64,000 nucleotides of DNA, taken from IMG/VR virus record IMGVR_UViG_3300007770_000001; one strand, 5' to 3'. The position numbers and the translations under genes were made by a program. Shown here one piece after another: positions 52,360 through 54,304 of this stretch (positions are counted from its first letter, which is position 1; each line of letters starts with the position of its first letter). The notes beneath the pieces were generated by a model that did no database searches, was not told where the DNA came from, and worked only from the letters and a program-made list of their open reading frames with translations. This DNA is from a virus (lineage: Duplodnaviria; Caudoviricetes).

Positions 52360-53457
52360 ATGCCTACCGATATCCAGAACCTGGTTGACCGACTACTGAC
52401 CGCTTCGCGTGCGTACTATTCGGGGGAGAGTCTTATCTCTGATGCGGAATACGATGCACTCGAGAACCAGCTGCGGAAGCTGGATCCGGATCACGAGGCG
52501 CTGAGGCAGGTGGGGGCTCCCACGGACAGCGGCTGGCCCAAGGTCCCCCACACCCGCCCCATGGGTTCTCTGAACAAGGCCCAGACCGTCGAAAACTTCT
52601 ATGCCTGGGCGCGGAAGTACCCCGCCTCCGAGTACATTGCCACCGAGAAGCTCGATGGCATCAGCCTCTGCCTCGTGTATGAGAACGGCGAGTTGGTGGC
52701 TGCCCGCACCCGGGGCGACGGCACTATCGGTGAGGACATCACTCGCAACGTCCGCATCATGCAGGGTGTCCCTCCCGTTATCGCGGAGAAGCGAACCACG
52801 AACATCCGCGCCGAGATCATCTGCCGGAAGTCCCAGTTTGCCCTTCACTTCCAGGGCGACAGCAACCCCCGGAACACGGCGTCCGGGACGGCCAAGCGCC
52901 ACACCGGCTGGCAGAAGTGCCGCCACCTCGACGTGGTCGCTTACAACCTTGACGTCGAGGGCTACCGCTCGCTGAGCCGGACCGAGGAGCTGGACCTCCT
53001 GGTCGCCATGAACTTCCAGGTCCCCAACGCCCTGGTCCGAAGCGCCGGTGGCGTTGTCACCATGTATGGTGACTACATCCACGGGACCCGTGCCGGCCTC
53101 GACTACGACATCGATGGTCTGGTGGTTGAGATCAACACGACCGTCGACCGCGAGGCCCATGGCTCGCATGATATGCGTCCCCGAGCCGCCGTGGCATTCA
53201 AGTTCCCCCACGAGCAGGCCGAGACGATCATCCGTAACATCATCTGGCAGGTCGGGAACTCCGGCCGCATCACCCCCGTAGCCGTCTTCGATCCTATTCC
53301 CCTGGCGGGAGCTCAGGTCAAGCGCGCCTCCCTCCACAACGTCGCGCGGGTCCAGCACCTGCAGCTGGCGCCGGGCACTCGTATCCTGGTGAGCCGGCGC
53401 AACGACGTCATCCCGGCCGTGGAAGCGAACCTCGACCTGAACATTCGCGTCAGCTGA
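52360..53457 (+). CDS. ligA: NAD-dependent DNA ligase, N-terminal part (Ia, adenylation and OB domains)
   Basis: YY-x-G-x-x-x-ISD-x-EYD, H-x-x-PM-x-SL, EKLDG, TRGDG-x-x-GED-x-T-x-N, DG-x-VV, A-x-KF, QVG-x-SG-x-ITPVA, A-x-LHN, R-x-NDVIP. Confidence 0.95.
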
Positions 53458-53485
53458 GTTTCTACACCCAGGTCCTGGACGTAAC
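53456..53485 (+). promoter_or_regulatory. Phage promoter motif between the ligase halves
   Basis: GAGTTT-N16-GACGTAAC, then GAGGAAGGAG and ATG 53510. Confidence 0.75.
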
Positions 53486-53509
53486 AGTCTTGAGGAAGGA
53501 GTGACCAAC

Positions 53510-54304
53510 ATGTTCCAGGTGCCCACCAACTGCCCCTCCTGTGGTTTCGAGCTCGAGATGGACGGAGGATACCTGAAGTGCTGCGGGCCCACGTGCCCGG
53601 CGCAGGTAGTCGGTTCCCTCAACCGGTGGGTGGGGAAGCTCCGCATCCTCAACATCGGGAACGCTCTGATCCAGGCCCTGGTCGATGCCGGGCGTGTGTC
53701 GGATATCTCTGGCCTGTACAGGCTGGAAGAGTCCTGGCTGCGCGAGTTCGAGATCGATGGCCGCAAGGTGGGCGGAAACGCCCGGCGCGTGGTGGCCTCC
53801 CTGAACGCAGCGCGGGATATCCCCGTCGACATGTTCGTGGGGAGCCTCGGGATTCCTCTCTGCGGCCGCAAGATGGTCAGCATCCTGGTCGACGCCGGCT
53901 ACGACGACCTCAGCAAGCTCGCCAAGGTCACGACTGCTCAGATGGAAGCGGTCCCCGGGTTCGGCGCCGAGCGCGCTCGTAGCTTCCGTGCCGGCTTCGA
54001 TGCATGCCGCTCTCTGATGCTCCAGATCATGGCCTCCGGAGTCGACGTGATCGCTCCGGTCCGCGCGGTGGCTACCGGAGATGCGATGGCCGGCCAGGCC
54101 GTGTGCTTCACGGGTGTCCGTGACAAGGAGGCTTCCGCGGCCATCGTGGATCAGGGCGGCAAGATCGCCAGCGGCGTGTCCAAGAACACCACCCTGTTGG
54201 TCGCGAAGAACCCCGCCTCCACCAGCGGCAAGGCCAAGAAGGCTCGCGCCCTGGGTATCGAGATCATCAGCCAGGCCGAGATGCGGTCCCGGCTCGGCCT
54301 CTGA
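53510..54304 (+). CDS. ligA: NAD-dependent DNA ligase, C-terminal part (Zn finger, HhH, BRCT)
   Basis: P-x-x-CPSCG...C-x-x-x-x-CPAQ, I-x-x-IG-x-x-x-x-x-x-LV, SLGIP-x-x-G, VPGFG, and BRCT VCFTG...GG-x-x-x-SGVSK-x-T-x-x-LV...K-x-x-KA-x-x-LGI-x-II. Confidence 0.93.
   Translation: MFQVPTNCPSCGFELEMDGGYLKCCGPTCPAQVVGSLNRWVGKLRILNIGNALIQALVDAGRVSDISGLYRLEESWLREFEIDGRKVGGNARRVVASLNAARDIPVDMFVGSLGIPLCGRKMVSILVDAGYDDLSKLAKVTTAQMEAVPGFGAERARSFRAGFDACRSLMLQIMASGVDVIAPVRAVATGDAMAGQAVCFTGVRDKEASAAIVDQGGKIASGVSKNTTLLVAKNPASTSGKAKKARALGIEIISQAEMRSRLGL

Follow-up and report, generated by a model that had tools for sequence, protein, structure and literature searches.

A two-gene NAD+-dependent DNA ligase in a marine jumbo phage and the endonuclease genes found at the same cut in its relatives

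The NAD+-dependent DNA ligase LigA of Escherichia coli is a single chain of six domains (PDB 2owo), and phage T5 is annotated with two NAD-dependent DNA ligase subunits, A and B (PMC3632103); the T5-like phage Stitch is described as encoding both ligase subunits to seal its nicks (PMC4319617). Subunit A/B pairs occur in hundreds of Tequintavirus and Vibrio phage records of the phage collection, the two genes being adjacent, ~200 nt apart and on the same strand in Tequintavirus phage FFH1, and separated by three small genes, again on one strand, in Vibrio phage River4. PDB entries 9hu3 and 9i5i combine a 339-aa 'DNA ligase (NAD(+))' chain with a 248-aa 'DNA ligase subunit B' chain, homologous to the FFH1 subunits with E values of 3e-104 and 3e-81. 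A precedent of another kind comes from Aeromonas phage Aeh1, whose NrdA is divided into NrdA-a and NrdA-b by the mobE homing endonuclease ('genes in pieces') and depends on its junction tails for activity (PMC3045599). Here we describe a LigA encoded in two halves, part 1 and part 2, in a 64,000-nt stretch of tailed-phage DNA (IMG/VR record IMGVR_UViG_3300007770_000001; hereafter the window). The explanation that we find likely overall is a two-subunit ligase, split by the insertion of a homing-type endonuclease gene that was later lost.

A ligase in two genes

The pair and the elements that precede each gene are arranged as follows.

52312..52341 (+): promoter-like motif of part 1, AGGTTT-N16-GACGTAAT, 26 nt upstream of the ATG; one of seven strict copies
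52349..52354 (+): ribosome-binding site (RBS) of part 1, GAGGAG, read from the sequence
52360..53457 (+): ligase part 1, 365 aa; domain Ia, adenylation domain (KxDG at K97), OB fold and a tail specific to split forms
53456..53485 (+): promoter-like motif of part 2, GAGTTT (53456-53461, overlapping the TGA)-N16-GACGTAAC (53478-53485)
53458..53509 (+): spacer, 52 nt, consisting wholly of promoter-like motif and RBS
53492..53501 (+): RBS of part 2, GAGGAAGGAG, 8 nt upstream of the ATG at 53510
53510..54304 (+): ligase part 2, 264 aa; zinc finger (C8, C11, C24/25, C29), HhH domain and BRCT domain

The part 1 open reading frame (ORF) runs from an ATG at 52360 to a TGA at 53455-53457; that of part 2 starts at 53510, opens with the residues MFQVPTNCPSCG and ends in a TGA at 54302-54304. 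Pfam assigns DNA_ligase_aden (PF01653, E 1e-41), DNA_ligase_OB (PF03120, E 2e-21) and, weakly, Nlig-Ia to part 1, and HhH and BRCT to part 2, and all LigA domains are found across the two halves. By matches to solved PDB structures, part 1 aligns with E. coli LigA residues 29-387 and part 2, including its CxxC...C...C zinc finger, with residues 404-670, which places the cut in the short linker that joins OB fold and zinc finger. The original prediction, made from the DNA alone, had placed it at this boundary, and ORFs, Pfam and PDB alignments agree. A junction alignment shows that the part 1 tail and the part 2 head together span the entire linker of fused forms, stop codon and spacer being additional DNA relative to fused relatives.

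Both halves retain what a complete LigA needs. In an alignment of 36 relatives, split and fused, K97/D99/G100, R118-G121, E152, D252-G253 and K281 of part 1 are invariant, as are Y19, D28 and D32 of domain Ia, which was judged by the residues that bind nicotinamide mononucleotide (E. coli Y22, D32, Y35 and D36); the DAEYD of part 1 matches the E. coli DAEYD. Across 28 stand-alone part 2 proteins the cysteine ligands and the glycines of the HhH and BRCT domains are conserved. The GC content at third codon positions (GC3) reaches 0.83 for part 1 and 0.85 for part 2, where other genes of replication and structure have 0.75-0.81, so that the earlier claim of motifs and codon bias retained in both halves stands, with catalytic and metal-binding residues intact. 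In the best-supported reading, the two genes would specify the two subunits of one NAD+-dependent DNA ligase, with nick sealing as the predicted activity, and it is highly likely that the window's ligase would be a working heterodimer. The two-subunit ligase originally proposed is further backed by ~80 diverged clusters of split forms, by relatives in which the halves are encoded in trans, and by the T5-family precedent with its solved A/B structure.

In the mechanism we propose, part 1 would bind NAD+, adenylate itself on the KxDG lysine and contribute the OB fold, and part 2 would supply the zinc finger, the HhH DNA clamp and the BRCT domain. Each half would be a translation product of its own, served by a separate RBS with a separate copy of the promoter-like motif ahead of it, and the two would assemble non-covalently on nicked DNA in the manner of T5-family LigA/LigB. 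Compared with single-chain E. coli LigA, the window keeps the six domains, the catalytic residues and their order, but a stop, a promoter-like motif, an RBS and a start take the place of the linker, yielding two polypeptides.

The architecture is already known from the T5 family, and the window represents a different phage lineage; taken by itself it is mostly confirmatory, a two-gene ligase of known design. In both groups the cut falls within a few residues in the linker between OB fold and zinc finger, with A carrying domain Ia, nucleotidyltransferase and OB fold, and B carrying zinc finger, HhH and BRCT. The two nevertheless differ in sequence (~33% identity for part 1, ~29% for part 2) and in position on the tree, the T5 subunits forming a separate, fully supported clade with fused ligases between it and the clade of the window. 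The window's spacer is also a minimal 52-nt unit of promoter and RBS, and the A subunits of T5 and River4 lack the VE-x-N-L-[S/D] tail of the window's split forms. Low identity, separate clade and missing tail point to an independent origin, and the T5-type split probably arose independently of that in the window clade.

Layouts among relatives and the endonuclease at the cut

The original prediction had suggested checking whether the split is conserved, and it is widespread: among the 120 protein clusters nearest to part 1 (47-58% identity), 81 are short (362-403 aa) and 39 long (569-639 aa), with the two kinds interleaved on the tree. One cluster counted among the short, P0053, is a fused form truncated by a contig end. 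Stand-alone part 2 clusters are also numerous (~262-280 aa, 37-58% identity), and their start is conserved immediately upstream of the zinc finger. The spacer is 49 nt long in one nearer relative and 37 nt in another, and two others carry unrelated small genes after part 1.

We then compared gene order at 162 loci, comprising 160 from IMG/VR and metagenomes together with the window and L001; the loci were recovered by scanning viral contigs with an alignment, a scan with a single protein having given none. The ligase is fused at 123 of them and split by a 0.7-2.4 kb insert at 10. Three have a short spacer (the window, L001 and L102), eight, which form a single clade with full support, have part 2 upstream of part 1 on the other strand, five have part 1 without part 2 nearby, and in 13 part 1 runs off the contig end. 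At one locus of the 'part 1 only' class (L011), part 2 was found 5.7 kb further downstream in the same record, and wherever whole records could be searched both halves were present in the same genome. Halves that lie kilobases apart or on opposite strands must act as separate polypeptides, and these trans layouts argue strongly that the enzyme would consist of two subunits across the clade. In the opposite-strand clade (L029, L055, L069, L075, L078, L080, L082 and L086, ~3300-6100 in each locus) we also noted a conserved ORF of 160-200 aa between the halves, co-oriented with part 2 and bearing the motif DAEWQRVNSYIADVLKD...LYAKLARLQGDF.

What occupies the cut in the insert-bearing relatives is a single kind of gene. 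Of the ten insert-bearing loci, nine have a TnsA-like gene (PF08722) precisely at the junction of the halves, and so does P0003, a relative that comes from the same sampling series and shares 58% identity with part 1. The relatives with an endonuclease gene at the cut are L010, L013, L040/41, L056, L065, L119, L122 and P0003; among the insert-bearing loci the TnsA-like assignment comes from Pfam at six and from homology for L119 and L122. The encoded proteins are ~230-330 aa long, with an N-terminal CxxC...H...H finger followed by a TnsA-like/endonuclease I-like PD-(D/E)xK domain, and their genes adjoin or overlap the part 1 stop and the part 2 start. Identity among them is 34-54%, although the ligases that host them lie far apart on the ligase tree. 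To find the same endonuclease family at a single position in such dispersed lineages is what marks a homing-type element with site specificity.

Three inserts hold something else besides, or instead. L013 (6247-8077) has an additional 335-aa ORF of no known family before its TnsA-like gene, the insert of L088 (3853-4864) holds an unrelated 317-aa ORF, and that of L100 (3377-4232), which has no long forward ORF, may be a decayed endonuclease.

Split and fused states require 13 changes on the ligase tree, at least nine of them forced by well-supported branches. On a tree of the OB domain, which adjoins the cut (residues 285-352, tail excluded), the number falls to four, against 17-19 on trees of N-terminal parts. 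A junction signature tracks the split state: essentially all short forms end in the tail VE-x-N-[LV]-[SD]-x-[GN]-I, where fused forms read VE-A-L-[ILV]. N357 is shared by 79 of 80 short forms and absent from all 38 long forms, and the tail pattern appears in only one of 108 fused loci, whose sister is a split form. Association with the split is concentrated in the last ~45 residues of part 1; in part 2 it is weaker and confined to the first residues, with an aromatic pair before PTxCP. Two mutually compatible readings fit this signature, namely co-conversion with a spreading cassette and selection for docking at the junction, with the part 1 tail and the aromatic part 2 head as possible docking aids.

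For the origin of the split we propose that a free-standing gene for a TnsA-like PD-(D/E)xK endonuclease would have inserted in the linker between OB fold and zinc finger, dividing the ligase gene, and that its later loss would have left the part 1 tail and a 52-nt spacer now serving as promoter and RBS. Such loss does happen, as the short spacer of L102, nested inside an insert-bearing clade, indicates. Several observations weigh against extending this history to the window. A tblastn search of the window gave no credible match to the TnsA-like endonuclease, and the 52-nt spacer is too short to reveal endonuclease homology, so that loss is here something we infer rather than see. The window's ligase sits on a long branch of unresolved position, the neighbours closest to it in one sample have fused ligases, and the intermediate state is absent among close relatives. 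The common tail, moreover, could reflect convergent selection for docking and not common descent or co-conversion. Balancing these points, we lean only slightly towards descent of the window's split allele from an endonuclease-bearing allele that lost its endonuclease gene.

The strongest competing account dispenses with the endonuclease: a cassette of promoter and RBS, or point mutations creating a stop and a start, would have divided the gene, and the division would have been kept for separate dosage of the DNA-binding half. The spacer does consist of exactly one motif and one RBS added to the fused arrangement, the same cassette heads both part 1 and a remnant of the ligase 5′ end further upstream (described below), and the window holds no endonuclease remnant. 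This account nevertheless leaves unexplained both the tail and OB-end signature common to scattered split lineages and the endonuclease family that sits at the identical site in relatives, and we judge it unlikely.

Insertion followed by loss of the endonuclease gene can be taken further, in a form that we put forward as possible though doubtful. The split allele would itself be a mobile cassette: the TnsA-like homing endonuclease would repeatedly invade the OB/zinc-finger linker of jumbo-phage LigA, co-convert ~45 codons of the OB end and bring with it the docking tail and the aromatic head. The window's allele would then be an endonuclease-free, cleavage-immune form that gained its own promoter, allowing the clamp half to be dosed separately.

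The nearest parallel is Aeh1 NrdA with mobE, where an essential replication-related enzyme is likewise cut by a free-standing endonuclease gene and new tails arise at the C and N termini created there. Relatives of the window resemble Aeh1 in that the endonuclease gene still lies exactly at the cut. The cases differ in the nuclease (HNH in mobE, TnsA-like PD-(D/E)xK with an N-terminal zinc finger here), in the enzyme divided, and in the window's having no endonuclease. The more interesting result comes from the comparison of relatives: fission of phage LigA recurs at a single linker in association with an endonuclease, and a signature at the junction tracks the split. In the literature searched we found no published account of this, nor of any ligase divided by a homing endonuclease.

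Split NAD+ ligases are not a T5 oddity; in a large clade of uncultivated jumbo phages most of the ligases are split. The layouts that coexist there (fused, interrupted by an endonuclease gene, with a short spacer, unlinked, or on opposite strands) make up a natural series on how well a clamp enzyme tolerates a cut in its linker, and the same series bears on whether tails left at a mobile-element junction hold the pieces together, as in Aeh1 NrdA. The loci also point to an uncharacterised family of site-specific PD-(D/E)xK endonucleases.

Pairing of the halves and integrity of the locus

Structure prediction of the complex gave a score of 0.48, with a best control of 0.02, agreement among three runs in at least 77% of contacts and a predicted local distance difference test (pLDDT) of at least 85 for the partner, a result that may reflect likeness to the solved LigA and T5-type structures. 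In calibration, scores at or below 0.60 included seven of 80 solved complexes and both mismatches that passed.

That score is rated as weak support for pairing, and we give it no weight as evidence. Alternatively, the halves might function apart, part 1 as a minimal ligase or adenylyltransferase and part 2 as an independent HhH/BRCT DNA-binding or scaffold protein; the weak rating and the unlinked halves of some relatives speak for this. Nonetheless, genomes that could be searched as whole records contain both halves, each half retains the residues expected of a complete LigA, and the A/B pair of the T5 family has been crystallised together. In domain-deletion studies the E. coli LigA core without HhH self-adenylates and does not seal nicks, which also speaks against separate functions. 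We consider this alternative very unlikely.

Recoding could in principle restore a single fused chain, by readthrough, by a +1 frameshift in the 17-nt frame overlap or by a hop in the style of T4 gene 60. The part 2 frame is open back to 53441, overlapping the end of part 1, and an AGC-TGA take-off site could in principle pair with an in-frame AGT at 53486 for a hop. Against this, readthrough of the TGA reaches a TAA after nine codons, no RNA structure (z = 0.56) or Rfam match accompanies the site, and the open overlap is not conserved in L102. Recoding is moreover impossible in relatives with an inserted gene, a 5.7-kb gap or halves on opposite strands, and a strong RBS, an ATG and a promoter-like motif suffice for expression of part 2; on these grounds it is scarcely credible for the window.

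A split intein or group I intron was also considered and rejected, there being no surplus residues beyond tails of ~10 residues and a spacer of only 52 nt.

Nothing except the unusual layout suggests an error of sequencing or assembly, or a pseudogene in decay, and the probability of this is negligible: the stretch is identical in four runs of two studies, part 1 recurs on 16 contigs, the change is a 52-nt insertion and not a single-base change, and GC3 is high, motifs are intact and the split is kept in ~80 clusters. More precisely, the 2-kb stretch shows no differences and no gaps in the contigs from those runs, and the 365-aa part 1 is letter-identical on all 16 contigs, in line with the earlier view that no sequencing error is involved.

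The runs that contain the stretch are marine and seawater metagenomes. The exact part 1 protein sits on a metagenomic scaffold of 338,860 bp, and the pair lies among genes typical of a large tailed phage, with helicases, a DnaB-like helicase, DNA polymerase, rIIA and a baseplate wedge protein; the source is a marine jumbo phage of roughly 339 kb.

The promoter-like motif and a second mobile element

Each half of the ligase is preceded by a copy of a bipartite phage motif, AGGTTT-N16-GACGTAA(C/T). GACGTAA occurs 12 times in the window, 10 of these lying 23-33 nt upstream of an ATG preceded by an RBS. The strict form GTTT-N15-17-ACGTA occurs seven times, against 0.62 in shuffled sequence (maximum three), and all strict copies stand just 5′ of an RBS and ATG. 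The spacer had been predicted to hold a promoter motif and a strong RBS that would make part 2 separately transcribable; it does carry a promoter-like motif and a strong RBS, and the motif, which recurs in the phage, is not the sigma-70 consensus. Copies of AGGTTT-N16-GACGTAAC start at 20395, 26680, 40529, 51190, 52312, 53456 and 63816 on the plus strand and at ~8306 on the minus strand, in front of a subset of genes.

Scans of 51000-54600 found no sigma-70 consensus promoter in the spacer and no intrinsic terminator. An Rfam search of 50500-55000 at E values up to 1 gave no match to an intron or known RNA element, and folding of 53430-53530 revealed no structure (the z of 0.56 cited above). 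Since no terminator follows part 1, transcription from either promoter could cover part 2, and its excess production from such double transcription is possible. A GTTT-type upstream and a CGTA-type downstream element 16 nt apart resemble promoters of extracytoplasmic function (ECF)-type sigma factors. In the window, a 316-aa ORF at 56652-57602 (+) has a sub-threshold match to Sigma70_r2 (E 0.002) and is a candidate, as a lead only, for a phage sigma factor reading the motif; this weak identification is a further point on the debit side of our overall explanation. An 11-nt palindrome, CCAGGTCCTGG, lies at 53468-53478 between the halves of the part 2 motif; it may bind a protein or be fortuitous.

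Mobile endonucleases target the ligase locus, and immediately upstream of part 1 the window carries an element of another family.

51190..51339 (+): promoter-like motif, RBS and a 31-codon remnant of the ligase 5′ end (MAQIADQIATRLLAASRAYYGG...), the remnant at 51244
51328..52272 (-): GIY-YIG/NUMOD3 homing endonuclease gene (Pfam), GC3 0.56, foreign in composition, just upstream of part 1

Within 51190-52449 this minus-strand gene separates the ligase 5′ remnant from the present start of part 1. Over its opening 90 nt part 1 has a GC3 of 0.57, and over the remainder 0.85; the values are 0.78 (native-like) for the remnant and 0.56 for the GIY-YIG gene. Composition and motif fit a scenario in which the GIY-YIG element would have brought a replacement 5′ end for the ligase gene that it interrupted.

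Insertions may also have struck elsewhere in the enzyme. At L071 and L079 the part 1 match (starting at 5001 in each) begins at residue 105-107 and comes in two pieces, with the ligase fused downstream, and the adenylation domain may there contain a further insertion, whether intein, intron or endonuclease. Near the ligase locus of the window, finally, a gene of the PLD-like (PLDc_2) nuclease or phospholipase D family lies at 49903-50604 (-).

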